Source of the DNA: Schizochytrium sp. TIO01
Taxonomy: Eukaryota; Protista; Bigyra: Labyrinthulomycetes
Length of the DNA stretch: 64,000 nucleotides
Assembly (NCBI GenBank): GCA_004764695.1
Contig: SMSO01000006.1
Coordinates: 1,689,859 to 1,753,858 of the forward strand
Direction: 5' to 3'
Shown: piece by piece, positions 29,501 through 58,629 of the stretch
How positions within the stretch are numbered: the stretch's first letter is position 1
Layout: every line of letters starts with the position of its first letter
Program-made: the position numbers and the translations under genes
The notes under the pieces: model-generated
What the model was told of the DNA's origin: nothing
The model's database searches: none
The model's input: the letters and a program-made list of their open reading frames with translations, nothing else

Positions 29501-30019
29501 TCCTCGCGTCAAGCCCAAGACGCTATCTACGTGTCAAACGGTGGAATATATACAAATCCTCCTTGCGGTACGCTCATCGAAGAATGTCAGTTAAAAAGGG
29601 GCACATATTACCTTGTGCCATCAACCTTTGAGCCAATGGAAGGCGATTACATGCTCGTTTTGTACTCGTCGCAGCCTATTGAGGCCTTTTATGAACCTTC
29701 TCGTGGTCCACCGCCGCCAGGGCTCCGGAAGCCAGTCCCGCCCAAACCCCCCAAGCCTGGGGCTGGGGCTGAGGCATACCCTATATCAAATGACAACGTA
29801 GAGAACACTATGAATGGCGCTGATGGTGATGGAAATAATGGCGACAACTTTGACCCGTCAGCTCCTGCACCCGCCTATCCGCTCGAGCCCTCAGAGGATT
29901 CTACCCCTTCCTATGTTTCTGTTGCAAAGGACCTCCTTGCGTCCATGAACGCTGAGGAGGCTCAGAAGCAAGATTCTGTAGGTGAAACAACTCAGCCCAG
30001 AAATCTTACCCATCTTTAG
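26582..30019 (+). CDS. CAPN7: Calpain-7/PalB-like cysteine protease (MIT domains, CysPc, tandem domain III)
   Basis: Catalytic motifs QDSVTDCSFLSSL (Cys), LVSLHAYAIL (His) and LLKNPW (Asn). Also ELWVSLIEKAYMKLNGGYNFPGS, two N-terminal MIT-like helical bundles and GGC...NPQY domain III motifs. First ATG at 26582. Confidence 0.92.
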   Translation: MDDEEDDWEMELELHYSTAQAWLERAAEAKKKNSNFDEVSYVESAIEAFKEALLYENDANNKNKLSQQIKELETRVNSLGKMVSKLPEVDELVDRAMRLDKDGSNDKEAQALYRRAAQGYQQALKRPSVLKYQERKWRSLHQQTLARAEDLKKRAVGKEFAQSTAEALADSSNEKYTREEKRVLLESSKINGVLMQPWEIATQESWKFTFPEPFRDPDGKIPLSQSQRERCQGWARPRQMMERTPCILSKTPSPLDVIQDSVTDCSFLSSLAIAAHHEWKWGKRLISGIIFPQDSNGWPAYNPDGKYIIKLWWNGTARQVIIDDFFPVTEQREWLCSHSRRKNELWVSLIEKAYMKLNGGYNFPGSVSGIDVYALTGWIPEAHTLSSLAAESKEFAWNKCISASRLGDVLMTISTSDFDDEVADQVGLVSLHAYAILNVRELADGTRLLLLKNPWRRVRWKGHFSPWDDENWTPERLAEVGYRLEKAKQTDDGVFYIDFDSLLDFFHILYLNWNPDLFKHKLFLHRSWPSSVNEPDDALTVARNPQFQLLIDDVRSSEHKMGSDTHVYSLPEAPSHQVSHQRSFGRKDYAANDSDEESDAHSSSRARHLSGTRNLDADQAAIGMLNKHAQVVDLGQSESGETTTVRPDQVASTDKVGLVWILLTRHVVHNTELLRQDPGSFMALNVYDRRHGTRVYYPENPLIRGTYTNNPHNLISLSVGPGQHAYTLVVSLYEKLRSMNYTLVVYASEHCVNPVLRALPMSMQYSKEIDGVWKRHSAGGCPKYPTYMLNPQYSITFEEDCEMLHLHMFANKEYPVNIRLFNKPTGQRRVDSPDPRTLVASSGAYRKGFCMLEQHNLKAGTPYTIVVSTFLPSQLGSFLLHTEADVPFHVEPVANEAEHLDYRQVIPGSWSTEDGTDGGCPNFGTYAYNPIVRIHCEAPSTELLVRLRYLPETEDATCSEWPSLNVSIFSQPVSSRQAQDAIYVSNGGIYTNPPCGTLIEECQLKRGTYYLVPSTFEPMEGDYMLVLYSSQPIEAFYEPSRGPPPPGLRKPVPPKPPKPGAGAEAYPISNDNVENTMNGADGDGNNGDNFDPSAPAPAYPLEPSEDSTPSYVSVAKDLLASMNAEEAQKQDSVGETTQPRNLTHL

Positions 30020-30165: not shown

Positions 30166-33100
30166 CTACTGCAACGCCTGCCAGTAAGCTCGCAAGCGAA
30201 GAAACACCCGCTGAAGAAGTACACGACGGTGATGGGCCTCTGCTACAATATAACGACGCCCGAGTGTCGAGTAATAAGATGTTAGGGTTGCCCAACACGA
30301 AAAGTGCCTCTGCAGCCTTTTCTTGGTAAGCCTGCTTTGTAGAGTAAATTCATAAGCCTGGCTTGCTGAGGCTTCGCAGCGAATGTGCTGAAATGCAAAT
30401 TTTAGCTGTACGTGAGCCCACCTCTCGCTCATTGTACGAATGGCACTTTGGCGTTCTCTTGCAAGCTGCCTTGTGATGACTAATGCGTCCCAACCAATCC
30501 GCAATAGATGTGCGTGACGTGCATTTGCGAAAAATTCGTGTTGTCTACTTGACACAAGTTTCCAAGTTGAAAAGCTTTGCTTAAGTAGCCTCTGCTTGTA
30601 GTATTGCACGCTCATGTCATGCGACTGACTCCTCCATACTTGAAGAGCTCTCCATACTCGACGTCGTAGGAGCAAAGACCAATGACGTGCAGCACGATGA
30701 TTGTTTTCTTGCTCTGAAATAAGTTCCTGGCGTAACCGTTTGACTGTGCTGACACGTACGGCCCAACAAGAGAATGCCTTGCGAAGAATAATAATATGAT
30801 GTACTCCAAGACAGAATTGCTTCCAGACAGATTTTAACAAGAAATGCGTCGCCACCTTATTGTTCTCATCTCTAACTTTTTGAGACTGCACAGTAGTATT
30901 GAACCAAGCATTGACAACTTTCCGTAAAAGGTGCCTATCTCGGCATATTTGCTTCAAGGCAGACCAGTATTTACATAGTTCACGGTTACGTTCTTCAGTC
31001 ACAAAACGAGCAAAGCGTCGCCAACCAAAGCGCAGGAATACTCGTCGTAATCGATACTGCAAGACTCTATATTTCCAGAAAAGCCAATACTTTCGCTTTT
31101 GTCTATCAAATAATGTATTGGTAACCACTCGTATATTCTTGCGGTCTTCCACACGTTCACGAAAACGCTGCCATCCACACCTAAGTTGGAACTCTTTGAT
31201 GTTCCTAATGTGGTAGCTATTTGCTCGAGCTCGACTAACATTATCCTGTAACCGTCTGAGAATACGCTGAGCATGGCAGGCACGTTGCAAATACTTTCTC
31301 ACAAATATTGCATCTTCTCGAGAAGTTGTACATCTCTGTGCAAGTCCAGGTGCCACCGTTACAAGGTAGGAATACGCTACCTCCCTGCGTCGAAGTGCCT
31401 CAAGCGCAAGATTGCGCCATGTTTTGAATATGGCTTGCAAATGCCTCAATCGTTGTGCCAACCACTCTTGCTGAAGTTGCGAAGCTACTTCTATCCAATA
31501 TGAAAAGTATCGTCTGTAGAGGATCTTGTGTTCTAAAGAAGTACATATGTTACTAGCTGTTTGAAAGCGTTTGCAATACAGTGTATAACGCATCCAAATC
31601 TTAAAAGCGCTCCGTTGATGCACATAATATGCTAGTAAGTGAAAACAACGCTCCCGGACGAATCTTGGGTGGGCTTCAAACTTCCAGGCATACCAAAAGC
31701 GTCGCAATAGGTAAATGGACCACGTGCGAATGAGGAAATTTACCCGTGCATATCTCCACCAGCGCCAGAGCTCACGACGCTGCCTAAGTTGCCTTACATC
31801 GCCCTCTCGCTGTTTTAACCAGACCGATATCCGAGCATTAGCTCGAAGACGGGCTAAAACCTTTTGTTTATTCTCGACGCGTTTTTCGATTTTGAAACCG
31901 GCAACTAATACCTTCCGATGCTGAATCATGCGCGTGCGAATTCCAGGAAGAAGACAACGGAAACCATTTCGCAAATTCCACATCCGATGAAACTGATCCG
32001 AGGTACGTCTGTGTTTTTTTTCTCTGGTAAAATTAGTCCAACAGGATAAGCTCTGCCGAACCTGTACGTGTTGTAGACGATTTGAAGCAAAAACAACTCT
32101 TTCGGATAACGATCTATCTTTGCAGCAACGCAAACGTTGAAACGCTTGCCGTAATTTAAGATTCTGAAGTAAAGATTTACCTGTTTGTACCCGCTGATTT
32201 AAAGTTTGATGGGTACGTAACTTTTGAAATGCTCTTTTAGCACGTTTACCCTGTACGGCTTTTGCCAGAGTATTTTCACGATGACGGTGCACACATCGTT
32301 GCTTGAAGCACTTCATAGCCTGAATAAGTTTGCGTTCTTGTAGGCTTAATTCTATTTGTTTGGTCGTTGTGATAAAATAATGTTCAGCACGAAGTTGCTT
32401 CCATGCAACTTGAAGCCAGTAATGGCGGTACTGATTTCTAGCTTTGCTCTGGATCTCAGCATTAAGTTTGGATCTAGCTGCGTTAGCTTTCAATGTTCTA
32501 AGATATGTTCGCAAGCTCTGTGTATTTTTTTTGCCAATATATTTGCTGCAAATGCCTAACGTCGCTCGCGTACGATGGGCAGCTTCTGAATTCTTTTGTA
32601 ATCTATGAACAGACTTTTGCAAGCTATGATGCCGCCTAAATTTATCCGCTCGAGCTAAATACGTTTCTCTGCACCAACAGTCAAGGTATACTCGAAGGCA
32701 ATGACGGCGGCGCGCCTGAAGTTCGTCAGCCAGAATACTAAAAGCATAGTGTAGAGCTTGCCTACGTAAGATACGTCGTAGCTTGGTATGTTGCTGCCAC
32801 TGCCTAAAGATGATTCGCCTTTGCAAAACACTATTTTTATCTTTTGTTTGTTGAATACGTACAGCTATATTATAAACGCGTCGCCAATAATCTAGATATT
32901 TCCGTGCTTCATTGCGTTTACGGCTAGCGATAATAGAAGATGATAAGGACCGATAGTGGCGGCGTCGTGAAGCATGATGTCTTAAATCGTTAAAAGCAAT
33001 AGTGCATTTCTTGACTCGACAAGCTGTGTTCCAACAAATGACCTGCTGCTGTAGGAACATGCGATGTTCATGAGCTTTATTCCACCGTACCCAAGCAGAT

Positions 33101-34407
33101 CGTAGAACCCGATTCGTAAAGTAAAGATGCGCTAGCTGATGCTGTAGAAATGAACGACGCCATTGTGTAAATACAGGCCGTGCAACCAAAATAACACGAG
33201 CGGAGTGTAATAGAGCAGATTCATGTGCTTTTTGTTGTTCTATAAGATGCTGAAAGCTTTTAAATCCGCGAGACAAGAGCCTGCGACGTGCAATAATTCC
33301 GGCTCTTTGACTTTGCTTCTTAATGAATTGTACATACAAAGACCATAATGAAAAGCTAACATGTAGCATTTTAAAACTCGCGGCGGCTAAACGAAGGTTG
33401 TGCACTGCACGAGCTGCTTGCCGCCATCGCTCAAAATGAGCCAAAAGAAACCATCGTTCAGCGACAAGTTCCCGAGCTTTAGCTTGCCGGCATTGTATGA
33501 TAAAGCGAGACCATGCGTAAAAAAAACGTCGTTGTCTGATTTGTTGCATTATTGAGAGTAAGCGTTGATGGCGATGGCTTTGTTTTGTTAGAAAGGCTAG
33601 TCGCCTTAATGTTTTACGCTTACGTTGCAGCGCTTCAAATTCGCATAAACTTCTTTGGACTTGTCTGTAACGAGCATTTTTATACAACTTGCCAAATGCA
33701 TAGAAGCAGCGAAATTGCTCAAGCTGCAACGCTACATATCTTTCATATTTTAAAAATAATTCACGTTGTCTTCTTGTCTCGCGGTTGCTGATAAGCTTCT
33801 CCACACCCTTCTGAAGAAGTGTCCTAGTTCGAAAAACATCACATGCATCAAGAACAGTTTGCTTACGCTGTCTTTCATGAACACTAGCTAACCACGTTCT
33901 GAAGCATCGGTGCACCCTCCAGGCATCAACAAGAGCACAGCAGTGGGCAATAATAGGACGGTGAATTCTTGGTATTGTATACATACGTGGACCTCCAGTG
34001 GATTCGATCCAATTTAAAAGTGCTTGAATCTGCATAGGATGTCTCAAGACTGGATGAAGCATCATCTTTGTATCTCTCCACTCATGTAGGTAAGATCTTT
34101 GCATATTTTCTGAGAATTCCTCATCTTTCCATGAGGTTGACATCGAAAACGATCCCTTGGGACTTGCTCCTAAATATAAACTAGAATTCGTCTTCCACTC
34201 TTGATCATATCCCCCGCTACAATGAACTTGCGACGAAGCATCTCGAAATTCCGACGGCGTACCTATATCTATTAAGTTACCCACGTGTCGAACTCGACTT
34301 TCAGAGAACCTCCTTTGTGGCCATCGGGCATCCTCTTCATTTGACTCGGTAAAGACTTCCTTTGGGAGCTCGAGTAGACCGTTATGAATCCAACCTCGTG
34401 AGGTCAT
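30166..34407 (-). CDS. Sfi1-like centrin-binding repeat protein (1413 aa)
   Basis: Long basic helical protein with many L..F/W..W[RK] repeats, e.g. AHLYFTNRVLRSAWVRWN, YYKQRLLKQSFSTWK, RRIIFRQWQ and LQAIFKTWR. Confidence 0.7.
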   Translation of the reverse strand: MTSRGWIHNGLLELPKEVFTESNEEDARWPQRRFSESRVRHVGNLIDIGTPSEFRDASSQVHCSGGYDQEWKTNSSLYLGASPKGSFSMSTSWKDEEFSENMQRSYLHEWRDTKMMLHPVLRHPMQIQALLNWIESTGGPRMYTIPRIHRPIIAHCCALVDAWRVHRCFRTWLASVHERQRKQTVLDACDVFRTRTLLQKGVEKLISNRETRRQRELFLKYERYVALQLEQFRCFYAFGKLYKNARYRQVQRSLCEFEALQRKRKTLRRLAFLTKQSHRHQRLLSIMQQIRQRRFFYAWSRFIIQCRQAKARELVAERWFLLAHFERWRQAARAVHNLRLAAASFKMLHVSFSLWSLYVQFIKKQSQRAGIIARRRLLSRGFKSFQHLIEQQKAHESALLHSARVILVARPVFTQWRRSFLQHQLAHLYFTNRVLRSAWVRWNKAHEHRMFLQQQVICWNTACRVKKCTIAFNDLRHHASRRRHYRSLSSSIIASRKRNEARKYLDYWRRVYNIAVRIQQTKDKNSVLQRRIIFRQWQQHTKLRRILRRQALHYAFSILADELQARRRHCLRVYLDCWCRETYLARADKFRRHHSLQKSVHRLQKNSEAAHRTRATLGICSKYIGKKNTQSLRTYLRTLKANAARSKLNAEIQSKARNQYRHYWLQVAWKQLRAEHYFITTTKQIELSLQERKLIQAMKCFKQRCVHRHRENTLAKAVQGKRAKRAFQKLRTHQTLNQRVQTGKSLLQNLKLRQAFQRLRCCKDRSLSERVVFASNRLQHVQVRQSLSCWTNFTREKKHRRTSDQFHRMWNLRNGFRCLLPGIRTRMIQHRKVLVAGFKIEKRVENKQKVLARLRANARISVWLKQREGDVRQLRQRRELWRWWRYARVNFLIRTWSIYLLRRFWYAWKFEAHPRFVRERCFHLLAYYVHQRSAFKIWMRYTLYCKRFQTASNICTSLEHKILYRRYFSYWIEVASQLQQEWLAQRLRHLQAIFKTWRNLALEALRRREVAYSYLVTVAPGLAQRCTTSREDAIFVRKYLQRACHAQRILRRLQDNVSRARANSYHIRNIKEFQLRCGWQRFRERVEDRKNIRVVTNTLFDRQKRKYWLFWKYRVLQYRLRRVFLRFGWRRFARFVTEERNRELCKYWSALKQICRDRHLLRKVVNAWFNTTVQSQKVRDENNKVATHFLLKSVWKQFCLGVHHIIILRKAFSCWAVRVSTVKRLRQELISEQENNHRAARHWSLLLRRRVWRALQVWRSQSHDMSVQYYKQRLLKQSFSTWKLVSSRQHEFFANARHAHLLRIGWDALVITRQLARERQSAIRTMSERWAHVQLKFAFQHIRCEASASQAYEFTLQSRLTKKRLQRHFSCWATLTSYYSTLGRRYIVAEAHHRRVLLQRVFLRLRAYWQALQ

Positions 34408-37950: not shown

Positions 37951-38865
37951 TTAGGCGTGATCTTTCCAATCAGTGATGATGAACTGTGTCACAAGATCCA
38001 AGAGGGTGAAGGCAATCATGGCCGCCGCAAGACTACTCTCAACAACGCGACGGAGGGACCACTTTTTATCTACAGTCTCATCGAGGCCGTACACCATAGG
38101 GAAACTTGGAATAAAGTAGCAGGCGTAGCAAAGGGCGCCCCAAGTCAAAGCCCACTCCATGTTCTTGTATGAAAAGAGGTCGTCGATCGCTTCCATAGTA
38201 GTTGCGAAGATCTCTCCCCAAGCAAACAACAGAGAGGAGAAGAAAACAGCCAAGCCTTGCATCAGAGCCGAATCGCGCACGTAAGGCGCAGTACGAATGA
38301 TGCGGATAAAAACGACGGACACAGCATGGTACGTAATGAAAAAGTACCAAGCATGCATGTACATCATAACAGGCACTACCTGTCGGCCAGTACCGACATG
38401 CTGGCTGTCAAAGTTCCATTTCAGGTGCGGAAACGCATACTTCATACCGAGGACATCAAAGAAGTACTCAGTGAAGAAGTAAGAAGCCTCAAAACCAAAA
38501 AGCCAGATCCACACGGAGAACTTGAACCAGTATGTCTCATACCAGGGTGCTTGCGTAGGGCACCAGATCCATGGTACAACAATGTTGGGAAGCGCGATGA
38601 GAATCGTAACGGCAACGTTACCTACATCACCAACCTTCAAGTGGTAACCCGAAATACACCAACCCACGAAAAGAGCAGCCCAAATTGGGGAGTAGATCAA
38701 ATACCACTTCTCCGTCCAGGCCTTTTCGGGGTTTGGGGAGAACACGCGCCATTCGACATCATTGGACTCGCTCACCTCCACACTCGTAACGTTTTGGTTG
38801 CCTCCATTGGCATTGGTACCTTTGTCCTTGTTCTTGCGCTGGCGCATACCCGCAGAAGAGGACAT
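37951..38865 (-). CDS. CPI1: Cycloeucalenol cycloisomerase (cyclopropylsterol isomerase)-like protein
   Basis: SPNPEKAWTEKWYLIYSPIW, YFFTEYFFDVLGMKYAFP, VP...FITYH, YACYFIPSFPM and LLDL motifs resemble plant CPI1. Multi-TM. Start placed at MSSSAG; the ORF extends to 39030. Confidence 0.8.
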   Translation of the reverse strand: MSSSAGMRQRKNKDKGTNANGGNQNVTSVEVSESNDVEWRVFSPNPEKAWTEKWYLIYSPIWAALFVGWCISGYHLKVGDVGNVAVTILIALPNIVVPWIWCPTQAPWYETYWFKFSVWIWLFGFEASYFFTEYFFDVLGMKYAFPHLKWNFDSQHVGTGRQVVPVMMYMHAWYFFITYHAVSVVFIRIIRTAPYVRDSALMQGLAVFFSSLLFAWGEIFATTMEAIDDLFSYKNMEWALTWGALCYACYFIPSFPMVYGLDETVDKKWSLRRVVESSLAAAMIAFTLLDLVTQFIITDWKDHA

Positions 38866-39920
38866 CTTCGCTCCAAGTCCAGTCGCTATTTGGCGTTTCA
38901 GTAGCAACGCAATTCCCTGGGCCAAGTAAAACCCCCACGAGTTACTATCTCTGCTCGCGCAGAATCCGCCCAAGTTATTACTGTTCTGGCAAAGCAAGGC
39001 AAAGCTTTCCTTTGTACAGGTTTGCGTCATTCAAGCTCACGCAATCACACTCCGTGCATTAAGGTGCATCTCCCGTGATCAGTGGCTATGTCCCATTTGC
39101 GGCTCCTCATAACCTACTTGTGCCCAGGTCACACTATGGCCTATACGTTAAGGCGGATGCTTCACAAGTCACTTATAGAGGGCCTCACAGTGGGGCAAAG
39201 GTTCTCGCGGAGCTGTGTAAAGGAGGGAATCGGAAATGGGTTATACATCGCGTGCAAGTGAGTTATAGCGGCGCATACAGTGCAGGAAACGGAAGATGCC
39301 AGTCCACGTAGCCTAGAGCGCCCTACGCTGGCTCGCTAGGAGACTCGTAGAGGAAAAGTGGAAAGGAAGAAGAAGAAGAAGTCGCGTGCTTTTGCTTCGC
39401 GAACCGGACGCGAGATCTCCATCTTGGACGAGTACAATAGCTAGCTCGCTAGCGGCAAGACGATTGCTGCAAACTCGTCTCCCAGAAGACGACCGCCTGG
39501 ACTCGAGGCTCCTCGAAAGCCTCGAGGCGGCTGGGCGACGACGCTGCGTGAACCGCAGCGTTGGCTCATCTTTTGGCGGAAAAGTGGTACCCGGTATCAT
39601 TTTTTGGGGGCTCCCCCGCGAGATTCTGGAGAATTGGGGCCAACCTGAAAGTAGGTTTGAAGGGCGAGCCTGCGAGCCTCGAGCATAGAAGTTCGCCAGG
39701 GTTTTGACTACACCCGTGAAGGGTGTACAGAAGAAGCTGCGTTGGTCCCCTAAGTTAATACTTTAGGGAGGCACCAGACCGGCTGTAAGTTAAAATTGTT
39801 TGTTCTGCAGATTATAAAGTCACAGAAGTAGCTGTATCTTCTTAAAACTCTGAGGTCAACTGTTAGGGGCTCGCCTGCAAAGTTTGCCCGTGAGCCTTGC
39901 ATTTTGAGTATTGCAGCAAC

Positions 39921-42900
39921 ATGAATTCAGAGGAAAGGCGGCGCAGACTCCCGCAGTCTCGTCAACGTGCATGTGAACAACAAATGTTGACAGAACCTGA
40001 TGTCCACGAAGAACTTGAACATGGTTCGGGAGAAAATATGGCTTCCCAAGCAGATGAAGGGATGCATTCTAGAGGTCGAGTAGAACGTTCGAATTCAGAA
40101 CCCCTCATTACTACAGATGAGGCTGAGTGCAGAGATCCTTACCTCCGTGCCAAGGATCATCATCGTGGTATTTCCTTTCCGAGCCTTGTTGCGTCTCTGA
40201 GCGATCAATCCATTTCCGCAGAACCACAACGACATAGTGGGGACCTCCAAGCTCGGTTAAAGCGAGGCATGAGTTTTGCAAGTGTAGCAAACAATGGAAT
40301 ATCTAAAATGATTGGCAAAATTATGACCCCCTTGGGTCAGCGTAAAGCTCGCAGGAAACGTGCAAATTCCGAGCCACTATTTGTTTTCGAACCTAGCGCT
40401 AGTGACCTTAAAGACAATGCACCTATTCATGGATCGGCGAGCTGGCATGAGCATTCACCGGACAGTAATGTACCTGGTGGTGATGGCTTTGATGATGACA
40501 CTATTTCAATGGCTCCACTTCGACGTGGCTACAGAGAACCCTCTCCGGGATACACGTATTACGCGAGTGGTTTGAGCAAAATATTCAATAAATTGAAGGT
40601 CAAAGCACATGGCATTGATCCTAGCTTTCTTGCATCCTCTCAAAATGCTGCCAACTATCTTTGTTTTCGATACGACAGCCATGCGTTCTTGGAGGATGAC
40701 GAGCAAGAGATTGTGGTTGGCAATATCCTCAAAGTTCAAAAACAATGGTCTGAGCCGCACAACGTGATCCCTAATCAAAACAAGAGCGCGATGTCTGCAC
40801 AGAATGATTTAGCAGATCTCAATAACGATCATATGCAAACGGCTGAAAAGAACGCACGGTACCATTTTGTGTCGGTTTTGTATGAGTTAATTCTCAGAGA
40901 GATGCTTCTTCCTCCTTCAGTAGCACAAAAACTTTTGGAAACGCAGACATTAGCACAGAAAAAAATGCTTATTGAACAGCATCGCCAGCTTTGTACCCAA
41001 CGAGTGCTCAATGATGAATCACGGCGTGCACTTTATCGTGTTCCATCAAATGGACAGTCTGGGTCAGCTTACGCCTCGCTATCATCTATTGTATCACCTA
41101 TAGCAGCAGTGTTGCCAGCAGGGCCGTCATTAGCTGCTTCGGCGTCCTCAATTCTGGCCAAGGTTATGGTTATGAAGGGTCACATCTCCCCAAGGTTAGA
41201 TACCGCGCTTCCGTTGCGCGATTTTGAGCAGATACTCTGCGAGGCACTTGTCCGCCTGCGCACAACAGATCGCCAGGGCTTGCAAGAATTCGTCATTGAA
41301 AATGGCCAGTCACTTTTTGAAATTCTCAATTTCTGTGCCTTCCGAAAGCCTTGTCGCCAAGAGGAAATGGCCATTATTTCCCGAAGTCTTCAGTGCTTGG
41401 AAGTGATTACCAACAACAATTTCGGGATTCAACTGGTGCTGCGTTTTCCTACAGCGCTGGTTACACTCGCAGTTTGCTCCAAATGCGAGCTGCCAGACCG
41501 TTCGAATAGTTCGAGTCCCCAGATTGCCATTGATGGCGTAAACAATGCCATTGTAGCTTTGGAGGTCCTCGTGCGTTTAATGTGGGGCTTACAGGGTGGG
41601 TCACAAAAAGTCATGGCAGGTAAGTTATTTTTTCACAGTTCGGAGTGTTACCCGAGTGTCTCTATGGATTGTTATGTCCCAAACTATTTTGGGCCGAGCC
41701 AATGTGCACGGGCCCCTTGTTATCTTGAAGATCCAAATCGACTCACAGTTAAATTATGCTATCACTGTCTTGCGTGCATATTAAATATATGCTTTCCTTG
41801 CCGCTCCCGTTTCGCTCGCACAGCTCTCGAAGAAGTGGCCAATATCCGTCACTGTCTTGGTGGAAGTCTACTGCTGTTCAAATACAACTACCTGGACACA
41901 TCTCTTGCGGACGATCAACCGTGTTTGCTTGTGGAGCTCTGTCTGGGAATCTGTACCTTCTTAAATTCTCTTATTGAATTAGAGGATGAGATCCAGAGGC
42001 GGGAGACGATCCGAGCGGGTATTCACCGACTTCAACTTTTTCTCGATGCATCTCAATTAGCAGTGCATATGGCTAGTATTCCATGGCCCAAACCTTACAA
42101 GGGAAAACGCTTGCACATCTATGCTCGGGAGGTTGAGACACAACTTGAAATTTTCCGGGTGCGAGGAGCACGTGATCTGAGCTCAATCGTTCAAGAGCCC
42201 AATCTTGATGTATATGGTAAGCTTGGGGAGTTAATCACACCATCTTTGAAACATGAAGCAAAACCGACCGAAAACAATGATTTGACCACTCAAATAGATG
42301 TAGTTCCTTCTGAGAAAATGCAAGTCAAGTTGGCTCTGGAGCCACCAACGTCAAAATCTTCGTCTGCTTCTATTGCAACACCTTTAAAGTTGAGTACCCG
42401 AAAGGGAATGAAGATAACACATCCCTCCGGTCTACAAAGCAGTACATTGGAGCCTCGTGTATTTTCATCATCTTTGCCTCTGGGACAGACTTCAATGAAC
42501 CGATCAACTCGCCAGTCACTGTCTTCTGGTCTTCATCGCGTCCAGACAAGTGGTTTGCACATGAATGCCACATCAGCATCGCAGTCTACCGCTAAGCACA
42601 GGCCTACAAATAATTCTGAAAATGCGCAACAACAGACGCAGCGACGACGGAAAAACCCACCCCCTCCTCGACCACCGCACCCGAGGTCGCAAACTAATTC
42701 ATCATCGCAATCACAAGCTCCTCTTTCAACGCAACTCCCATCATCGTCATCCTTGCCTTTACCCTCTACTCTGCCCGCTCATGCTAACGCCACTCGATTG
42801 CCCTCTGCGAAGCGCACGAAGGAAGCGGGGAGTAAGATATCATTATCTCACGAATCCGCCCCCAGTACATTGTCCGTATCGCTCCCGACTCAATCGCCAG

Positions 42901-44381
42901 ATTTATCGGAAAATCAAGGAAAGCGACCAAGTAGACAGAACACGCAGGTGTTATTGACAGAAACATCGAGACTCCGCAAAACAGCTGGCACTCGAACCCC
43001 TGATGTGTTGGATGTTCCTGAGCAGAAACCACAATGGCAAGCTGTGGTTCAACTTTTAGCACGTGCTGATTTAGCAGCTTACGAGCGGGCGTTCTATGAA
43101 GAAGGCTTTGATACGCTTGAACGAGTCAGCGAGATGGATGCTGAAGACTTTGCAGCGGTGCACATGCGACGTGGGCACATCAAGTCATTGTTGAAGGTTT
43201 TGAAGCAAATCGAAAGTGTCGCACCCAACGTAGGGTGGGATGGGCCACAAACACCCTCCCCGCGGGCTCCTTGTGAACTTTTAGCCCAGCAGTCCTCCCC
43301 TCTATTTTCGAGCAACGAAGTTCACATACCCGTTCCAGGTTCTTCATCTTCACGGCCATTTGGATTCAAGGTCATTCCTAATGCGGCCTTGGTTTTGCAA
43401 GGTCTAATTGGGCGTGGATCATTTGGTGATGTACACTTGTGTGAATATCAAGGTGGGAAATGTGTTGCAAAGAAGATTCGCTGGGCACCAGGAGAACCTG
43501 TCTCTGTTGACGCTGACGTAAATGAACGGCAGCTCCAGGAACAACAAAAAAGACTAACAAACGAGGTCATTTTGCGCGAAGCCGAAACAATGGAAATGTG
43601 CAAAAATCATCCCCATGTTGTCACACTTTTTGGTGTGTGTTTGGATTCTCCTGGCAACCTTTTGCTCATCAGTGAGCTTTGTGAACGCGGCAGTTTATTT
43701 GACGCAGTGGTCAAGCCCCGCCGCTCAGCCTTTAACTTTCAAGAAACTCTTGAACTTGCTCGCCAGGGTGTATCTGGACTGGTGCATCTTCACTCATTAG
43801 ATGTTGTACATCGCGATATCGCTGCTCGAAACTTTCTACTTGATTCAAGAGGAATTGTTAAAGTTTGTGACTTTGGGCTCGCTAAGATTAAGCCTCGCCA
43901 GATGAGCGGCTCATTTGACCATTCAAACTCTGGTGACTCGGCACGCATAAACCCGCTGCGATGGGCGGCTCCTGAAAGTTTACGTGATGGCAAATATTCC
44001 CCAGCTTCGGATGTTTATATGTGTGGCGTGTTTCTGTGGGAATTGTGGATTCGGGAACAACCTTTTCGTGACTTGGAGCCGATCGCCGCAGCATTGCAGG
44101 TTCTTCAAGGGCAGCGCCCACGAATCGACGATGATCGATGCGCTGAACGCCCGGAACTAGTTGATTTACTTCAATCATGTTGGCGCGCGTCACCACTCTC
44201 AAGACCTAGCATGATCGAGGTTCTGGCTTCCCTTCGAACTGTTCAGCAAATCTCATTCAACACTTTGGAGGCAAACCCAAGTTCTCATTGTGCGAATTCA
44301 GATTTTGGAAAGAAAAACTCTGCCAAGGATCGTTGTGGACGCCCCGGAGTCATCCACCACGAATATCAGAACGGAATTTGA
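39921..44381 (+). CDS. Formin GBD/FH3-like + SAM + tyrosine-kinase-like protein kinase; probable intron 41620-41823
   Basis: Kinase motifs IGRGSFGDV, VAKK, HRDIAARN, DFGLA, PLRWAAPE and SDVY. SAM-like LAAYERAFYEEGFDTLERVSEMDAEDFAAVHMRRGHIKSL. Diaphanous-like motifs at ~40860-42170. Confidence 0.88.
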   Translation: MNSEERRRRLPQSRQRACEQQMLTEPDVHEELEHGSGENMASQADEGMHSRGRVERSNSEPLITTDEAECRDPYLRAKDHHRGISFPSLVASLSDQSISAEPQRHSGDLQARLKRGMSFASVANNGISKMIGKIMTPLGQRKARRKRANSEPLFVFEPSASDLKDNAPIHGSASWHEHSPDSNVPGGDGFDDDTISMAPLRRGYREPSPGYTYYASGLSKIFNKLKVKAHGIDPSFLASSQNAANYLCFRYDSHAFLEDDEQEIVVGNILKVQKQWSEPHNVIPNQNKSAMSAQNDLADLNNDHMQTAEKNARYHFVSVLYELILREMLLPPSVAQKLLETQTLAQKKMLIEQHRQLCTQRVLNDESRRALYRVPSNGQSGSAYASLSSIVSPIAAVLPAGPSLAASASSILAKVMVMKGHISPRLDTALPLRDFEQILCEALVRLRTTDRQGLQEFVIENGQSLFEILNFCAFRKPCRQEEMAIISRSLQCLEVITNNNFGIQLVLRFPTALVTLAVCSKCELPDRSNSSSPQIAIDGVNNAIVALEVLVRLMWGLQGGSQKVMAGKLFFHSSECYPSVSMDCYVPNYFGPSQCARAPCYLEDPNRLTVKLCYHCLACILNICFPCRSRFARTALEEVANIRHCLGGSLLLFKYNYLDTSLADDQPCLLVELCLGICTFLNSLIELEDEIQRRETIRAGIHRLQLFLDASQLAVHMASIPWPKPYKGKRLHIYAREVETQLEIFRVRGARDLSSIVQEPNLDVYGKLGELITPSLKHEAKPTENNDLTTQIDVVPSEKMQVKLALEPPTSKSSSASIATPLKLSTRKGMKITHPSGLQSSTLEPRVFSSSLPLGQTSMNRSTRQSLSSGLHRVQTSGLHMNATSASQSTAKHRPTNNSENAQQQTQRRRKNPPPPRPPHPRSQTNSSSQSQAPLSTQLPSSSSLPLPSTLPAHANATRLPSAKRTKEAGSKISLSHESAPSTLSVSLPTQSPDLSENQGKRPSRQNTQVLLTETSRLRKTAGTRTPDVLDVPEQKPQWQAVVQLLARADLAAYERAFYEEGFDTLERVSEMDAEDFAAVHMRRGHIKSLLKVLKQIESVAPNVGWDGPQTPSPRAPCELLAQQSSPLFSSNEVHIPVPGSSSSRPFGFKVIPNAALVLQGLIGRGSFGDVHLCEYQGGKCVAKKIRWAPGEPVSVDADVNERQLQEQQKRLTNEVILREAETMEMCKNHPHVVTLFGVCLDSPGNLLLISELCERGSLFDAVVKPRRSAFNFQETLELARQGVSGLVHLHSLDVVHRDIAARNFLLDSRGIVKVCDFGLAKIKPRQMSGSFDHSNSGDSARINPLRWAAPESLRDGKYSPASDVYMCGVFLWELWIREQPFRDLEPIAAALQVLQGQRPRIDDDRCAERPELVDLLQSCWRASPLSRPSMIEVLASLRTVQQISFNTLEANPSSHCANSDFGKKNSAKDRCGRPGVIHHEYQNGI

Positions 44382-44847
44382 TCTTTTGTAAACATAGTAT
44401 AACCTTATCTATCCTTCGATTTGCTCATTTGATTTTGCTCATTTTTCATGAGAAATGTAGACTTACTGAAGTCTATCTAGCTATTTAATGCTTCTAGAAG
44501 AACACATCAAAGTGCAGTTAAAGGAACGAGTTGTGACGTCGGAAATTTATCAGGGGAAAGCAGGGGAAATAGGATGAAAATCACAAAATAATAATGGAGT
44601 ATAGTACTAGTACTACCTTGGCAAAGGAGAAATTGATTTACAGGACAAGGTGGGAAAATTGACAAACACGGTGAGCTGACTCTTCTTGGCCTTCATTACA
44701 TGGGTACTTATCGAGTCAATTCCTTTTCTAGAAAGAGTGTTTGCGTGTGTAATTGTAGCAGTTACGGTATTCGAAATTCTCTTTTAACACAAAAATACGC
44801 CTCGGCGAAGACAATGCAGCATGGGATTTGGTGCAAACGATTAACTA

Positions 44848-47800
44848 TTAGCAGATAAAGGTCAAAACGTTCTCATTATTTCCACGCATCATGACCGTAG
44901 GAGGCATACCTGTAGAGAGCATCTCGAGCCAAGACATGTAGAGACCCACCGAAATACCCGTTTCAGGCAAGGGGAGGGTAACAAAAATCATGCTGGTCTC
45001 AGGGCCTGAGGATTTTTGACGAATAATTTCAACAAGTCGCAAGGTTTGGTGCGTCTTTGCACGCTCTTGCGGCGAGAGCTCATCCATTGAAAGATGACTG
45101 ATTCTTTCAAACTCCTGAACCATAGCCTCTGATGCACGGCTCGAGAGATTTGCCTCAACGGCATCTACACTAGCATCGATACGGAACTTTTGTAACAAAT
45201 GCACCATGCGGAACTCAGTTTTCTGAAGCTTGGAAGTTTCATTCACGTTATAGTTTGTCACAGTCAGGACACGGAGCTTCTGGTGAGAACGCATAATACG
45301 ATTTTCCTTAAGAAGGTGGGGAATGAGCATTGTCAAACCACCGTCATCAGAGACCCACCATACATCAATGGTGTCACCCTGGAGTGTGGTTTGCGGAGAC
45401 GTGAGGATCTGAGAGCCACCAGGAGACAAGTCTCCACCATCAGAGCTACGAGTGGCACCATTACCTTCGTCGCTAGTAACGGTATTGCGGGGATGAACGA
45501 CGGCATCGTTCATGTCTGGCTGCGGAGTAGAAACTCCGGCACCAGCCAAGTCATCATCCTCATCAGCATCAGATGAGTAGTGGCGGCAGCATCCAGGTCC
45601 GACTGGGACACAGCCAAGAATCTGTTGCGGTTTAGAAACAGTATCCACGTTAAAGACGTTGTTATCATCACGCACAATCATGAGACCCATATTCGAGGCC
45701 AGAGAAATACGAATCATTTGTTCATACTCACGAATACTGGCCGGGCTTTCATTGCGCCAATTCTTCTTATAGCCTAGAACTACGGTGTTAGGTCGCATTC
45801 GACCAACACCAGAGCACTGCAAAAGGCTTTGGAAGCCGTCCAGGAGGGAGTCGCCCACAACAGCCTCGAAAAATGCGTTAGGGCAGCGATTACCACCCCA
45901 GATGTGGCGAGAATTCAAAAACTCCTCACCAGCGTCCCGATGTTTTTGGACGATAGCAAGACGCATTGCAAGCCGGGATGCAAGCTCGTTGTGAGCAGCA
46001 AGCTTATCATCGTCATCAGTGGTGTTATTGGTTTCGACCGAGCTTGAGCGTTGGGAGCTGGATTCCGGGTTTTTGGGTTCGCAAGCGTCAGCCTTGGTAA
46101 TGCTGATGCTAGACCCCTGGCTACCCTGTTCTTCGAGATCTACCTCAACGTCTTCTTCGTCTTCTTCTTCATCACCTTCACAAATATTACCCAAGAGAGG
46201 GGATGCTTCATGAGGGTCAGTGGTGGACGAAGTGCGATGCGCACGAGCAATAACTTCATCGATGATGACGTCACCGCAAATCATAATACCACCACCCTTT
46301 TTAAGTAGAGAGGTAAACTTGACGAGGCCATCGCGCTTGTTGGGGTTTCCAGACATGACAAGGAACTGAGGGCGAAAAGTTTTCACATGATCGCGTCCCT
46401 CGCGTTGGAGTTCCTCCATTTTCTTCAAGGTGCTGAAGTACTTGCGAGCTTCACCTGCCGCGCCCCAGTTGACCTCTGGGTCGAGCCACATAAGATATCC
46501 GTGGAGAAGTGCAGCAACGATGACAGTAAGAATGGAAGCGAGCCAGTCCATCATAAACATGACTACGATGCAAAGGATGAAACCAAAGAGAGACAGCCAC
46601 TTGTTGTAGTACTTGAAAGATGGGCGCCAGCCGGGATAGTGTGCCATAGAGGAGGCAAAACAAGCGTAGTTGGTAAATGCGTAGGACACCATGAAAAAGT
46701 TAGAGATGAGGGGGGCGATGACGTCGAGGGAGCCTACAACAGTGCATCCGCAAGTGATGGCAAACGTAAGCAGGTATGCGCGCACGGGCTCGTTGGCGAC
46801 TCCACGGCCCTTGCCAAAATAGTTGAGCCAAGGCCACGGGAAAAGTTCGTCAGCGGCAACACTTTGAAGAATGCGTGGCGCGCCCACGAGGGAGGCCAGA
46901 GCAGAGCTGAGGGTAGCGGCAAACACACCAACGTATAGAAGGGGAGACCAAATGCTGATATTCTGCATGATCATCTTGTTAAAGATGAGGCCACCATAGG
47001 GAACGAGACCAGTCTGCGCGGCAGTATCCATGTTGACGCAATATTCCTCACCATCAGCATCGGAGCAAACCAAGCTACTGAGGCCAACACACCAAATGAG
47101 AGCCAGGTAAGAGAAAAATGTTACTGTGATAGCTGCCAGGGTACCTTTGGGGATTGCCGAACTAGGATCTTTCAGATCACCAGAGAGGTTAGCACCAGCC
47201 ATGACACCAGTAGCTGCTGGGAAGAAGACAGCGAAGACAGTGAAAAAATCCTGTTGTTTGGCCGGGGTGGCTGGATCGGTGATGAAACTGCCGCCAAAGT
47301 TACGAGCAGCATATCCAACAAAGCCCTCCTCTGCGTTATCTGCGGCATTCGGGATGCCAGGGAAGAAAGTTCCGAGAAAGACAGAGGCCATTGAAAGGAG
47401 GAGCGTGACCAGGAGTCCAATTTGGCACTTTGCGTACCAAGAGACACCAACGAGAGCAATAAGAAGAAGAATGACGGTGGTGGCAAGACCAATGATACGA
47501 ATGTCATTGATCTCACTGCCTGCAATATAACCAACATCGGCGCTGACAAGAAGTGATGAGACAGACTCTGCAAAACCGATGACATACATCGAGGTGGCGA
47601 CAGCCTGGGCAAGGAAGAAAAGGATGCCGATTGGGCCACCATAAATTGGTCCAAGAGCTCTTGAGATGAGAAAGTATACACCACCACCCTTGACCTCGCC
47701 GTTTGTGCAAATTGCGCAAAGAGAGAGTGCTGTGATGGTTGTAACTACCTTGGAGGCGATGAGAATGACAGAGGCCAGAATGATACCTGCCTGTCCTACG

Positions 47801-48129
47801 ACCCAACCCAGGCGTAGGAACATGATGACACCCCAAATGTTGAGAAGGCATGGGATAAAAACACCTGAGATCCAGCTGAGTTTGGCTGGGGCGCCTTTGT
47901 TGTCAGCGACACTTGAGTCGCTCAGATGTGTTTCTCCAGGTGGTGGCACGACCTTGCTCGCAGAGAGACCGTCTCCTCCATTGGCTGGTGAACTATCTAC
48001 GGCAGCAAAGTCGGTGCTTCTGTCACTTCCTCCTGAGTATGCAGCGGAATCGAGAAGCTGCATTACGGACGTGCGTGCGCCCTCCTTACGGTACACGACC
48101 GTGGAGGGCGATACTTCGACGCCAAGCAT
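44848..48129 (-). CDS. SLC12 cation-chloride cotransporter (NKCC/NCC-like), 1093 aa
   Basis: [103 protein letters not shown], and terminal [10 protein letters not shown]. Confidence 0.96.
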   Translation of the reverse strand: [1093 protein letters not shown]

Positions 48130-48821
48130 GTTGGCTTTTGGCTTGCGTGTCTCCGATGCTCACGTCTGCCGTTTGGTTCAAGATTTGCTTTGAACTCTCT
48201 TGGTCCTTAGAAAAAAGACCAGTTGTCTTTGTTACCGGATTACCGCTTGGTTCTTTTTTACTTTTAATTACTTTTCTTTTTCCCCTTCCGCAGCTCTTGC
48301 GCTGGCCAGTCACGCTGAAGTTGTGCTTTCTTCTTTTGGCACGTGCGCGCTTGGTTTATCCTGTGTTTTAGATGAAACAAACTGCTTCTTCTTTGTTAGT
48401 CACCCTGCCAGCATTGTTTAGCACCTCATGGCCTACAAATCCATCCATCCATCCGTCTGTCCATCCATCTATCCACCCACTCGCTCAATCGCTGCACGAC
48501 GGCAGAAATCGTAATGGCGTCCTCTGACAGAGCTTTGATGCACTATTTGCAAACCTCCTATGCCGCTATAGCCGATTGTTATGGCATGCGCTTTTGCTTC
48601 CATAAGTGAGCCGCCGAATTGTCTACCAAGAAAGGCAGAAAGTAGTGTTCGATTATACATCCGTAGATACATGGAAATACATTCACTCATTCAATCAAAC
48701 CTTTCTTTCCCCTTCTGCATCGAGTTGCTTCCATCGTCCCCGTCGCAGCTGCCATTGCATCAACGTCAGAGCGTCGAGCTACTCACTCGGATGCACTTAT
48801 CAATCACTCGATTCGTCAACT

Positions 48822-48880
48822 GATAGATAGATAGATAGATTGATTGATTGATTGAACTCATTCATTCATTCATTCATTCA
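48822..48880. repeat. Compound microsatellite (GATA)n(GATT)n(CATT)n
   Basis: Directly visible. Confidence 0.9.
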
Positions 48881-50458
48881 TTAGCACAAGCGTCTCTCGC
48901 CTGGAGGGACCAAGATGTTCGTTTAACGTAAGTACGCACGCGCACGAAAAGAACGAGGCCACGAGGAGATGGACTTGCTCGGTTGCTTGGCCAGCAGCAG
49001 AGCTGAGCGCCTCCACGAGATGATCGAGCGAGATGAGTGAACTGAGAAGAAGGAGTGCGGCCAATGAATGAACTAAGGGAAAGAGAGAGACACAGAGAGA
49101 GAGGATGGAATTTGAAATGGAGGGAACCGTGGAGCGATTCGGATCAAGAAACCTACCTGTAGAGAGGCCGGGCCGCACGGCGAGCGGGGAGGTCGGCTGG
49201 CTATCGAGCTGCTTGCGGTCTGCCGTTGCCAGGACGCCTCCGCCTCCTGCTCGCGCAGAGCTAGAAGGGCGAAAAGACTAGAGAAAGGCTCTAAGCAAGA
49301 ACCAACGACTCAACGAGCCTCGTAGATGAGCGAGCAGAGCAGAGCAGAACAGCAAAGCGAGTCCGGTGCAGGCGCGAGGAGAGCGGTGTTCGCGTGCCTT
49401 GCTCGCTCCAAGACGAGAGGGCGTCTGCCACCTCGAGCTAGCTAGCCAGCTCGGTCGCTTCTGTTTCTGTATTTGCTTCGGCTTCCGCAGCCGCTTTTGA
49501 ATTTAAATTCTTCTTTCTGCTTTCTGGTCTGTTTGACGTCTCTGCCAAAGAAGACTTTCTTTACATTCTTTTCAACCACCACCTTCAAGTTCTCTTACTA
49601 GCCCCCTACCTACCCTTAGCTACGCACTCACTTCCTCACTGGCGAAGTTTTCTTCTTTCCGTACTTCTCTCTCTCATTCGTTTCCTTTCTGTTCTTTCAA
49701 TTTTGAATTCCTTTTCCAAACTCTTTTTTTTCAGCCGCGATAAGTGCTAAATCAAACTTGAGTTCATCCTCACTCAGTATGCGTGAGAACTCAACTCAAC
49801 CCAACTCAACTCAACTCACGCGTCTTCTTCGAGGCAAGGTCCGTTCTGGTGCCTCCAGGTTTGCGCGAGAACGGCGGCAAGCTGGCCTCGAGTGCAGGTT
49901 AGCGGAGAGAACGAAGTGCTGCTGGCTGTGCTCTGTCGCTTTTCTGACTCTTTCGGCGCTTGGGGTGATAAAAAGAGCTGTTCGAACTTTGAACATTCGA
50001 ACTTTCGCCTCTTCTTTGTTTCTCTCCTCAATCAACACCCAAAGTAAAACAGAAACAAACGCCTTTCCCTCGAAAACGTTATCGCCTTTTATTAAAATTT
50101 AAGACAAACATTTTCTGTTTTATTTTAAAATTAAATAGACGTTTTGAAAAAGTATTTTTTTTATTTTAATTTTCCAAAAAACAAAATGAAAGAGACACAT
50201 GTTTCTTCCCATATCCTCTGTAAGTGGCGATTCCGGCGCCGCAAACTCCCTTCTAGCCGCTCGAGCGCGCCTCAAAGATACCCGCAAACCAGGCAGCCTT
50301 TCGGCCAGCCAGCCGGTACGAGCGCCCTTGTTTGTTTCCCTCTAGTTTTCCCGCATGAATATATGTTTGTTTGCCCGTCTTGACGTTTGTTTCCTCGCCG
50401 TATTTCAAGTGTTCTTTCCGTGCTTTCTGTTGTTCTCTCTCCACTATGTCTTAGGGAC

Positions 50459-56359: not shown

Positions 56360-58629
56360 TCAAGGTTCTCTATCTCGACGGCGGTCATAATGCTCTGATT
56401 TTTTTTCCAGTGACTTTCGCCACAGCGGATTAGGGGAAGACCGATGTTGTTGTTGATCCGGTGCTGCCGTTTCTTCTGCATCAGCATCCGCTGTTGCTGC
56501 TTCTTGCGCTGCAGTTGTTATAGATATAGTCATTGTAGAAAGCGACAAGCCGGATGACCACGATGACCAGCTCGATGTACTACTGCGTCGTGAATTCTTT
56601 GCTGGTTTATCAAGGTCAGAAAACCCACTCTCAGTATCCGAGTTCCAACGACCGCCACCTGATCGGTGTTTGTGATAAACACAGGTTAAAGAAGAAAAAA
56701 CTCCAACGCATATGACCACCCCAACAATTCCCCCCACAATGGATCTTGTAGGAAATTGGTCTTGACCGAGGCCTCGGCTTTTTTCTTCCGAGAGAAAACC
56801 ATTCTTGATGGTGCCTCGGTCGGGAGTATTGTAAGTAGTAGACGTCGCTCAGGTGTTAATGATTCTTTTTTTCGAAATTGAGTTGCTAAGAAAGAAGAAA
56901 TTAATCGAGAGATGGTGGTTTTCGCATCAGAGATATTGCCTCGTTTGGAAACCTCGCACTTTTCTAATGCTGAAGAGCGAAGAAAATGTGTATGTTCTCG
57001 TTGATATTTCTGTACCTTGCCCTCGATCGAAAAAACGATCAGCTGTGTCATTGCGGCGTCATCTATTTCCAAATCATCAATGTTAGAGCGAAATCCAACC
57101 GCAAGTGTCGTCATGTCTGGACTTGAGATTACGTAGGATACATGATGGGTCTTAGACATCTCCAAGAAAATCCTCTCTTTTAATACCCAGTTGGCTTCAC
57201 TGGTCAGACTGTTGCGTTCTAATAACACTGTCCTCCCAGGCTTAGCAAAGGTAATGATGCCACGGTTGTCGCCTTCATTGGTTGCAACTTGAACGCCCAA
57301 AACGGCCCGCTCACATTTTTGTAACATAATGACCTCAAGGTCTTTGACGCCGATCAAAGAGCCAATGCCACCTTGTCGTAAATTACCTACGTCGGTTATC
57401 TTTTCCAGAAAGTGAGATAAAAGCATTGTGTGTGGATTGGTGCCACTTGCTTGTCCTTTGTAATTTTCCACGTTCAGCGTGGTCATGAATTGACTGTTCG
57501 TAACTAAATTATGTTCAACCGATGCGAAGTCATGGACAACATGAACAGCTTCGCTCATTTTCGTGCGGCGCGAAAGTCCCTCCAAGTCTATAATCGATTC
57601 TGCGCAAGAAGATTCACCCTGAAGTGACCACGTTCCGCATGACTTCTTATAACGAACAGTGAGGCAAGAAGAAACCTTACGAGTTGGCTGATGTCCAACA
57701 ATCAGCCAGCCCTGGTGGGCCACTAAATAACAACCGAACTCTGACTTTCCGCTAAAATCATCGGATACAAGGTAATCTCGTAACCAAAGACTCGCGCCGG
57801 TAAATTCGTAAACGTAAACTTTTGACTCCTCTGGTGCCCCAATAAATATCCACTGACGTCCATCGTCAGTCTGAGACTGAGCCAACGACTTACCAAATGA
57901 GCGACTCGATTGTATCTTCGGTCCACCCTCGCGTTCGCTTTCAAGCCTTCCTCCAAGTATGAAAGAATCCTTGTTTTCTAGACATGCAGATTGTTTCGCT
58001 ACTTCCCAATTGGCATGGCACGATATGTATAAGTAAACTACCCCAATATGGCTTTTTGTTTTTTGTTTGTCAGAACCAGCTCGTCTCATGACGAGCTCCT
58101 CACCAGAGACCAGCACTGCGTCTTCACCTTCAAGACAAAGAATTTGGGATCCAAATCGAACTACTAGACGATCCACTAGTTCTGATGGCGCTCTAATAAA
58201 CTCAGTAGATATGTCATAGTTGCTACTCCTCTCAAATATATGAATGCCGCCTTCCTGGGATGCATTGCCAGGCCCTAAACTACCAACAAATAATTTGTCT
58301 CTACAAAACTGAGCGTCACCATCAAAGCGCAGCAACGTTGGATCACCTAGAATTTTTGTCACAATAACTTTGTCGTTTGTTGCACCCACCTCGTTTCGCA
58401 TGCTGTTATTATTCTCTTTCTGCCTTGCGAAACAAACGACTTGTCCTACTACTACTAAAACAATCAAAACAAAGCCCAGGTAGGAGGCCGTACGGTACAT
58501 GCTTCTCCTATAAACCCCTTTGTGTCCCTGAGCTACCTCAGATTGCTCTGCTTCTCCACTTAAGACAGAGTCCTTGTGGGCAGCATCCCTTCCTGTGAAG
58601 TTGACCTCGAGCTCTGAGTTCATGGCCAT
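56360..58629 (-). CDS. Membrane protein with FG-GAP/beta-propeller-like ectodomain; C-terminal TM and tail lie in the -1 frame (shift near 56770-56810)
   Basis: N-terminal hydrophobic helix (YLGFVLIVLVVVGQVVCFA). FG-GAP-like RFGSQILCL..VLVSG and SFGKSLA...IFIGAPEESKVYVY. RRLL..PTEAPS stalk, then an overlapping ORF giving SIVGGIVGVVICVGVFSSLTCVY plus a Ser-rich tail. Confidence 0.65.

Follow-up and report, generated by a model that had tools for sequence, protein, structure and literature searches.

The DNA considered here is a 64,000-nucleotide stretch of the Schizochytrium sp. TIO01 genome (contig SMSO01000006.1, positions 1,689,859 to 1,753,858 of the forward strand), referred to below as the window. 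On its plus strand an open frame of 1486 codons runs from an ATG at 39921, itself closely preceded by an in-frame stop, to a TGA at 44381; 39429-39920 contains no ATG. The frame stays open even across the sole intron of the gene (41620-41823, GT..AG, 204 nucleotides, phase 1). The spliced product has 1418 amino acids, 3 of which differ from database protein P0002, and joins an N-terminal formin GBD/FH3 module to a SAM domain and a kinase domain with tyrosine-kinase motifs. The same domain order was found in 3/3 protein clusters: P0002 (this gene), P0003 from Hondaea fermentalgiana (1003 amino acids, named merely 'protein kinase, putative') and P0009 (756 amino acids), which is encoded without introns on a gene-dense eukaryotic metagenome contig. 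Hondaea, the nearest relative bearing a species name, places the organism among the thraustochytrids. The architecture is real and conserved, and apparently undescribed. Its parts are as follows.

39429 to 44423, plus strand: span of the spliced-transcript contigs (5' ends at 39429-39596, 3' end at about 44423)
39921 to 41619, plus strand: first coding exon, with residues 1-566 plus one base of codon 567, from the frame and contigs
39921 to 40850, plus strand: N-terminal extension of low conservation (residues 1-310), missing from P0009 by orthologue alignment
40869 to 40988, plus strand: formin GBD, its GTPase-binding G subdomain (residues 317-356); the Pfam match to Drf_GBD begins at residue 317
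41016 to 41210, plus strand: Ser/Ala-rich insert (residues 366-430) separating the G subdomain from the ARM repeats; P0009 has almost none of it
41211 to 42194, plus strand: FH3/DID armadillo (ARM) repeats (residues 431-690), split by the intron; from Drf_FH3 in P0009 and the orthologue model
41620 to 41823, plus strand: in-frame, stop-free intron within the ARM repeats, from contigs and GT-AG borders
41824 to 44381, plus strand: coding exon 2 through the stop codon, from the frame and contigs
42195 to 43019, plus strand: low-complexity linker (residues 691-965), 45% S/P/T/Q with one PPPP run
43020 to 43214, plus strand: SAM domain (residues 966-1030), SAM_1
43395 to 44231, plus strand: kinase domain (residues 1091-1369) with Gly loop, K1116, E1152, HRDIAARN at 1229, DFG at 1249, PLRWAAPE and CW-x6-RP
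44364 to 44381, plus strand: C-terminal end Y-x-x-G-hydrophobic (Y1414), common to all three orthologues; pattern set after viewing the sequences

Sequencing runs were searched for contigs that cross the intron. The splice junction was present in 7/7 distinct runs examined (X1, X3, X5, X6, X10, X12 and X14, from 6 studies, out of 24 runs listed), whose nature as RNA is presumed; in X6, X10, X12 and X14 the intron of the downstream gene was likewise skipped (4/4) and intergenic DNA was thinly covered. A single intron-free contig of about 4.7 kb, reaching from the GBD through the kinase and containing no neighbouring gene, was found in X5 (39459-44423) and in X12 (39429-44375). The X14 contig also joins the GBD to the kinase without the intron, but extends over neighbouring genes. 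These data agree with an earlier note on this DNA, made from the letters alone, which had treated the N-terminal part and the kinase as one gene rather than two separately transcribed ones; all the motifs that it quoted lie in frame +3 where it placed them, and the motif that it had assembled across a splice site is indeed divided by the intron into its two halves.

The intron is not always removed. Contigs retaining it accompanied the spliced form in 4/4 of the runs X1, X3, X5 and X6 (depth 125/227, 210/324, 2.8/77 and 13/21, respectively, although levels cannot be read from the depth of contigs, and DNA may be present in X1 and X3), and none were listed for X12 or X14. The intron came out stop-free and in frame in 3.65% of 20,000 shuffles, and a database protein of 1486 amino acids, P0007, has the length of the unspliced frame. 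If translated, the retained intron would insert 68 Cys-rich residues into the ARM repeats, with uncoupling of the sensor as a possible effect. P0009 carries nothing extra where the intron lies, so it is the spliced version that is conserved. At this exact intron position the Hondaea P0003 model lacks 12 residues (region of residue 398) that P0002 and P0009 both have; the gap probably reflects an intron common to both genes whose acceptor was mis-called in the model.

Pfam profiles were used to identify the domains. Drf_GBD matched residues 317-519 with an E value of 8e-7 on the whole window protein (29.2 bits, below the 30.1 cut-off) and of 1.9e-8 on the domain piece (34.5 bits, above cut-off); whole P0009 was above cut-off (E 1e-9) and whole P0003 below. 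SAM_1 was matched in the domain piece of the window protein (E 1.4e-7), in P0003 (6.3e-8) and in P0009 (1.2e-6), and PK_Tyr_Ser-Thr in the window protein at E 2e-50. Drf_FH3 went undetected in the window protein and was matched in P0009 (E 6.3e-7, 29.9 bits, cut-off 27). The expectation that FH2 would be missing was borne out: Pfam gave no FH2 match at E up to 10 in P0001, P0002 and P0003 or up to 1 in P0009, where the other domains account for all 756 residues. A Pro/Ser-rich linker had also been described, and such a low-complexity S/P/T/Q stretch is present, but it is neither conserved (residues 691-965 in the window protein, against stretches of roughly 70 residues in P0003 and 15 in P0009) nor an FH1. 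A relict FH1 was rejected on these grounds and on the scarcity of proline runs, with one PPPP in P0002 and no run of at least four in P0003 or P0009.

To define the family, a profile built from the P0002 and P0003 modules was compared with 1.84 billion representatives, and exactly these three proteins were recovered at E up to 0.001; since the profile failed to reach formins, more distant fusions could be missed. A metagenome scan returned P0009 itself alone, at 2 loci, no relative was found in viral contigs, and no longer relatives were found among proteins of 1757-5000 amino acids, the sole size range covered. Identities of the window protein to P0003 were 30/55 in the G subdomain, 161/247 in ARM, 42/60 in SAM, 215/283 in the kinase and 17/68 in the linker; the corresponding values for P0009 were 20/52, 75/240, 24/60, 152/274 and 2/17. 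P0009 is compact, so linkers have been lost while G, ARM, SAM and kinase are all kept. A further sequence, P0006, carries a taxon number pointing to a basidiomycete, in conflict with its being a 55% thraustochytrid orthologue; this was treated as a label problem and the taxon was not used.

Homology of the N-terminal module to formins was assessed by sequence and by structure. A language-model search with residues 296-700 ranked Drf_GBD clusters first (score 0.91, lead-level), and a PDB sequence search with the GBD/FH3 part returned nothing, or mDia1 alone at E 0.74-0.8. For structural comparison, a model of P0009 residues 18-332 was used (mean predicted local distance difference test, pLDDT, of 63); the fold of full-length P0009 (mean pLDDT 39) was unusable and its Foldseek matches were ignored. 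With the 18-332 model, 10/10 Foldseek matches at E up to 0.001 were formin GBD-FH3 chains, the three best being GTPase-bound formins aligned over 304-316 columns. In a comparison with 48,161 chains the top 5 were all formin GBD-FH3 (Z 18.9-15.7; next 14.0), and in a second comparison the top 14 of the 50 entries listed were formin GBD-FH3 (Z 20.7-15.7, root-mean-square deviation [rmsd] about 3, 202-222 residues aligned). The best match was mDia1, against which a comparison had earlier been proposed (Z 20.7, rmsd 3.0, 220 aligned; best non-formin Z 14.0). Sequence identity to the matched formin structures was 12-18%. The superposition covers model residues 67-315 (mDia1 144-371), that is, the ARM part, and assignment of the G subdomain rests on Pfam and the full-length Foldseek alignments. 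Together with the Pfam matches, these results show that the N-terminal module is a formin GBD/FH3 homologue, as the earlier note had held.

The catalytic residues of the kinase domain are intact: the Gly loop, beta-3 Lys (K1116), alpha-C Glu (E1152), HRD and DFG are present in 3/3 orthologues. The catalytic loop reads HRDIAARN in P0002 and P0003 and lacks the Lys of HRDxKxxN in 3/3, and subdomain VIII reads P-L-[RK]-W-A-A-P-E in 3/3. A catalytic loop without this Lys and a Pro in subdomain VIII are the criteria given for two Phytophthora tyrosine kinases (PMC3019232), and by them the tyrosine-kinase-type signature that had been pointed out is present in subdomains VIb and VIII. In a PDB sequence search with the kinase, 58 of the best 60 matches were tyrosine kinases. 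The kinase is predicted, with fair assurance, to prefer tyrosine. In 3/3 the stretch between DFG and APE contains no Tyr, which rules out a switch by tyrosine phosphorylation of the activation loop. After the kinase follow just 35-65 residues with no Pfam match, SH3 and CRIB included. Their Y-x-x-G-hydrophobic end is kept in all three proteins while the remaining tail diverges; the pattern, chosen post hoc, matched 4 of 465 scanned frames of at least 60 amino acids, 3 of them these genes. P0006, a MMETSP/EukProt member, ends four residues early.

In formins, the GBD/FH3 module is part of a switch, and its contact residues were mapped from the mDia1 GTPase/DAD contact list in PMC4111664. The printed mDia1 alignment served for N164-166, K213, N217, I222, Q307, N310, A311 and T314, superposition end offsets for V351, Q352 and V355, presumed helix register for K252-L260, and spacing with one assumed insertion for a putative mapping of the G subdomain. 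On the GTPase face, M90, M94, L96, L104 and M115 retain hydrophobic residues, and L96, L104 and Q118 are invariant. The G subdomain, whose described role is GTPase binding (PMC4111664), is conserved on a par with ARM (14/40 vs 65/228 invariant columns). On the DAD face, N310 is invariant, K213 is acidic in 3/3 and T314 has become Glu; by helix register, A256 would correspond to Arg and I259 to Trp in 3/3. Identity to mDia1 on this face is 4/15 in the window protein (N217, I222, N310 and Q352). In mDia1, a change of A256 to Asp frees DAD (PMC4111664). A loosened pattern for the DAD consensus (MDxLLxxL plus basic region), which divergent DADs can escape, found no match in the 3 proteins. With no DAD consensus and an altered DAD pocket, formin-style autoinhibition cannot carry over unchanged. 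P0009 also appears to have no room for the formin dimerisation domain, since SAM begins about 15 residues past the FH3 end (the position matched to mDia1 371); this domain is absent from the folded P0009 piece, and the other two orthologues have an unconserved low-complexity linker there. Compared with the formin switch, the protein seems to have kept the sensor, changed the latch and exchanged the dimeriser.

Several known systems resemble parts of this protein. Diaphanous-related formins (mDia1, FMNL1/2, Entamoeba Formin1, FHOD1) share the G subdomain and ARM-repeat FH3/DID and are the best structural matches, but the present protein has no FH1, FH2 or DAD consensus and, in P0009, apparently no room for the dimerisation domain, and its output is a kinase instead of actin nucleation. 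Dictyostelium RasGEF-L/V are also non-formin signalling proteins with a complete N-terminal GBD/FH3; they are amoebozoan, have a RasGEF output, and no SAM or kinase is described for them in the available part of that account (PMC555941). Ack1/TNK2 and TNK1 share a SAM directly before a tyrosine kinase domain, and Ack1 acts as an effector of Cdc42 (PMC10047419). The structure neighbours of P0009 in the Atlas include TNK1 clusters, with TM scores under 0.5. Ack1, however, reads its GTPase through a post-kinase CRIB and has SH3, MHR and UBA, whereas here a formin GBD/FH3 precedes the SAM; there is no sign of orthology, and Ack1 is not the best kinase match. In PAK and other Rho-effector Ser/Thr kinases, a kinase at the C-terminus is controlled by an N-terminal region that binds GTPases (PMC8305917), and a similar arrangement would apply here; they differ in their CRIB-type sensor and STE20 kinase. 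Putative tyrosine kinases of oomycetes (Phytophthora PITG_02400 and PITG_02529, and Thraustotheca P0010) share HRD(I/L)AARN and the subdomain VIII Pro (PMC3019232 for the Phytophthora pair), and the words formin and GBD are absent from that Phytophthora kinome paper. Thraustotheca P0010 itself has 1684 amino acids and two kinase domains, both with the AARN loop, and bears no GBD or SAM annotation. Lacking FH2, the window protein is not a formin, and lacking SH3 and CRIB, it is not an Ack member; by analogy, it would most likely work like Ack1 or PAK.

The earlier note had not recognised the architecture from characterised proteins. Literature searches turned up no account of a GBD/FH3 fused to a kinase, though one might stand in some table of domain architectures. 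RasGEF-L/V, the only cases of a formin GBD/FH3 outside formins in the literature consulted, already show the sensor freed from formins (PMC555941); what is new is therefore the kinase to which it is joined. Domain shuffling is a known trait of stramenopile formins (PMC2386819); most likely, a formin N-terminus cut at the FH3/DID end was shuffled onto a SAM-kinase.

Taken together, the observations are best accommodated by a soluble, Ack1-like kinase of tyrosine type that is recruited by a Rac-type GTPase and clustered by its SAM domain, a reading to which we assign a probability of roughly 45%. Binding of Rac-GTP to the G subdomain and the first ARM repeats would bring the protein to the membrane, where self-association of SAM would cluster the kinase and turn it on, and the clustered kinase would phosphorylate tyrosine. 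GTPase binding by the module is slightly favoured. Activation through SAM clustering instead of activation-loop tyrosine phosphorylation is an even call; in Ack1 and TNK1 both self-association and activity are driven by the SAM that directly precedes the kinase (PMC10047419). At rest, the remodelled concave ARM face might clamp another segment of the protein itself, one candidate ligand being the conserved tyrosine end at the C-terminus, a step we regard as doubtful. Complex prediction with the FH3 part (428-700) and the C-terminal 44 residues scored 0.00, without an alignment and with the partner fold uncertain, and speaks neither for nor against the clamp. Rac is recorded in Blastocystis, Phytophthora and Albugo (PMC5499878 supplement); for thraustochytrids, our literature search on Rac found nothing relevant. 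As a guess, the protein could function at the actin cortex or the ectoplasmic net. The net is supported by a skeleton of actin (PMC12221091); this suggests where to look but is not evidence. Formin and Rho terms are absent from four supplements of that paper.

Several points weigh against this reading. The structural evidence comes from an orthologue and not from the window protein, and the G subdomain lies outside the superposed residues 67-315, with rmsd of 15-18 in the full-length Foldseek alignments. By the mapping, polar GTPase contacts (N95, K100, P103, K107 and N164-166) are changed and 5/14 GTPase-face positions are identical to mDia1. Invariance on the DAD face is not significantly enriched over the ARM columns (6/15 vs 65/228, p 0.24), and a DAD consensus was not found. 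The P0009 catalytic loop is HRDIASRN, with ASRN and not AARN. Among the PDB matches of the kinase, the Ser/Thr kinase CTR1 scored 116.5 bits vs 121.4 for the best single tyrosine-kinase domain, and the PDB is rich in tyrosine kinases. Finally, several stramenopiles lack any Rho-family GTPase (PMC5499878).

The changed polar contacts would be expected if the module were blind to GTPases and served as an ARM docking or substrate-targeting scaffold, its concave face binding another protein and so fixing the SAM-clustered kinase at a site. Residues R552, W555, N614, S615, E618 and T672 are invariant on the mapped concave face and suggest a conserved ligand other than DAD, and a long Ser-rich insert separates G from ARM in 2/3 orthologues. 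There are precedents as well: the mDia1 DID binds liprin-alpha3 and that of FHOD1 binds nesprin, and structures 4uwx and 6xf1, by their titles, show non-DAD partners on formin N-termini. A pure ARM scaffold would not, however, need the G subdomain, which is kept in all three proteins and conserved like ARM, and we consider this explanation unlikely, if the strongest of the alternatives.

A second alternative concerns the output. CTR1 aligned across nearly the whole kinase domain (8-286 of 287), and the lack of an activation-loop Tyr would suit a GTPase-linked TKL kinase of Ser/Thr or dual specificity (Raf/MLK/ZAK-like MAP3K) with convergent tyrosine-kinase motifs. The N-terminal extension contains three R-x-x-S-x-P motifs (residues 56, 82 and 147; window 40086-40379), two of them near-repeats, a number reached in 0.04% of shuffles; the P0003 N-terminus has one and P0009 none. 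These are candidate 14-3-3-type phosphoserine sites of the sort found in Raf-type kinases. ZAK, a SAM-bearing MAP3K (PMC10047419), is among the matches, and oomycete tyrosine kinases at first clustered with TKLs (PMC3019232). Against a TKL output, the catalytic loop without Lys and the subdomain VIII Pro occur in 3/3, as in the tyrosine kinases of PMC3019232, and we judge it quite unlikely.

A bolder form of the Rac-recruited tyrosine kinase would re-use the formin latch: a stramenopile lineage would independently have built a Rac-activated tyrosine kinase by replacing the actin-nucleating half of a formin with a SAM-kinase, the remodelled DID pocket, with its invariant Arg and Trp, would hold the C-terminal tyrosine end instead of DAD, the GTPase would open it, and tyrosine autophosphorylation would reset it. 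This we hold to be improbable; if true, it would mean Rho-to-phosphotyrosine signalling outside Holozoa, convergent with Ack1 and possibly steering the actin-based ectoplasmic net. It is very improbable that the module acts in trans on a genuine formin by binding its C-terminal DAD, linking the kinase to formin activation or inhibition: formins with GBD/FH3 exist in stramenopiles (PMC2386819 Table 1) and the four mDia1-identical positions named above would favour such binding, but the acidic residue at K213, the Glu at T314 and the invariant Arg to which A256 maps by presumed helix register all oppose it. That two neighbouring genes or a mis-assembly were taken for one is scarcely credible, for although some contigs end at the intron, the frame is open throughout, single spliced contigs exist in X5 and X12, and the identical fusion occurs in two other species, in one of them intron-free.

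Elsewhere in the window, the gene is flanked by a divergent gene without Pfam match and by a convergent SLC12 transporter gene (44848-48129, minus strand), which has a 796-nucleotide intron (48360-49156) upstream of its open reading frame (ORF), spliced in 4/4 runs. A Calpain-7/PalB-like protease with MIT, Peptidase_C2 and two Calpain_III domains is encoded at 26582-30019, and a GHMP kinase fused to a nucleotidyltransferase, of the sugar kinase/pyrophosphorylase type, at 60804-62732, its start probably lying upstream. ORFs 386-1096 and 21353-22747, the second without a Pfam match at E 0.001, have a motif in common that is presumably AP2-type DNA-binding. The long minus-strand ORFs 30166-34407, 37951-39030 and 56686-58629 gave no Pfam match at E 0.001; the first may be an Sfi1-type repeat protein and the second a sterol cyclopropyl isomerase.

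With three clusters found, the reach of the finding is limited. Stramenopile tyrosine-kinase activity has been predicted from sequence (PMC3019232), and this protein supplies a soluble candidate for it that is, by its sequence, catalytically intact. The fusion is also a natural test of GBD/FH3 function without FH2 and DAD. Thraustochytrids are culturable and genetically tractable. The sensors of GTPase-effector kinases are CRIB, HR1 or RBD; a conserved kinase fusion would mean that the formin sensor can serve as a transferable module for input.

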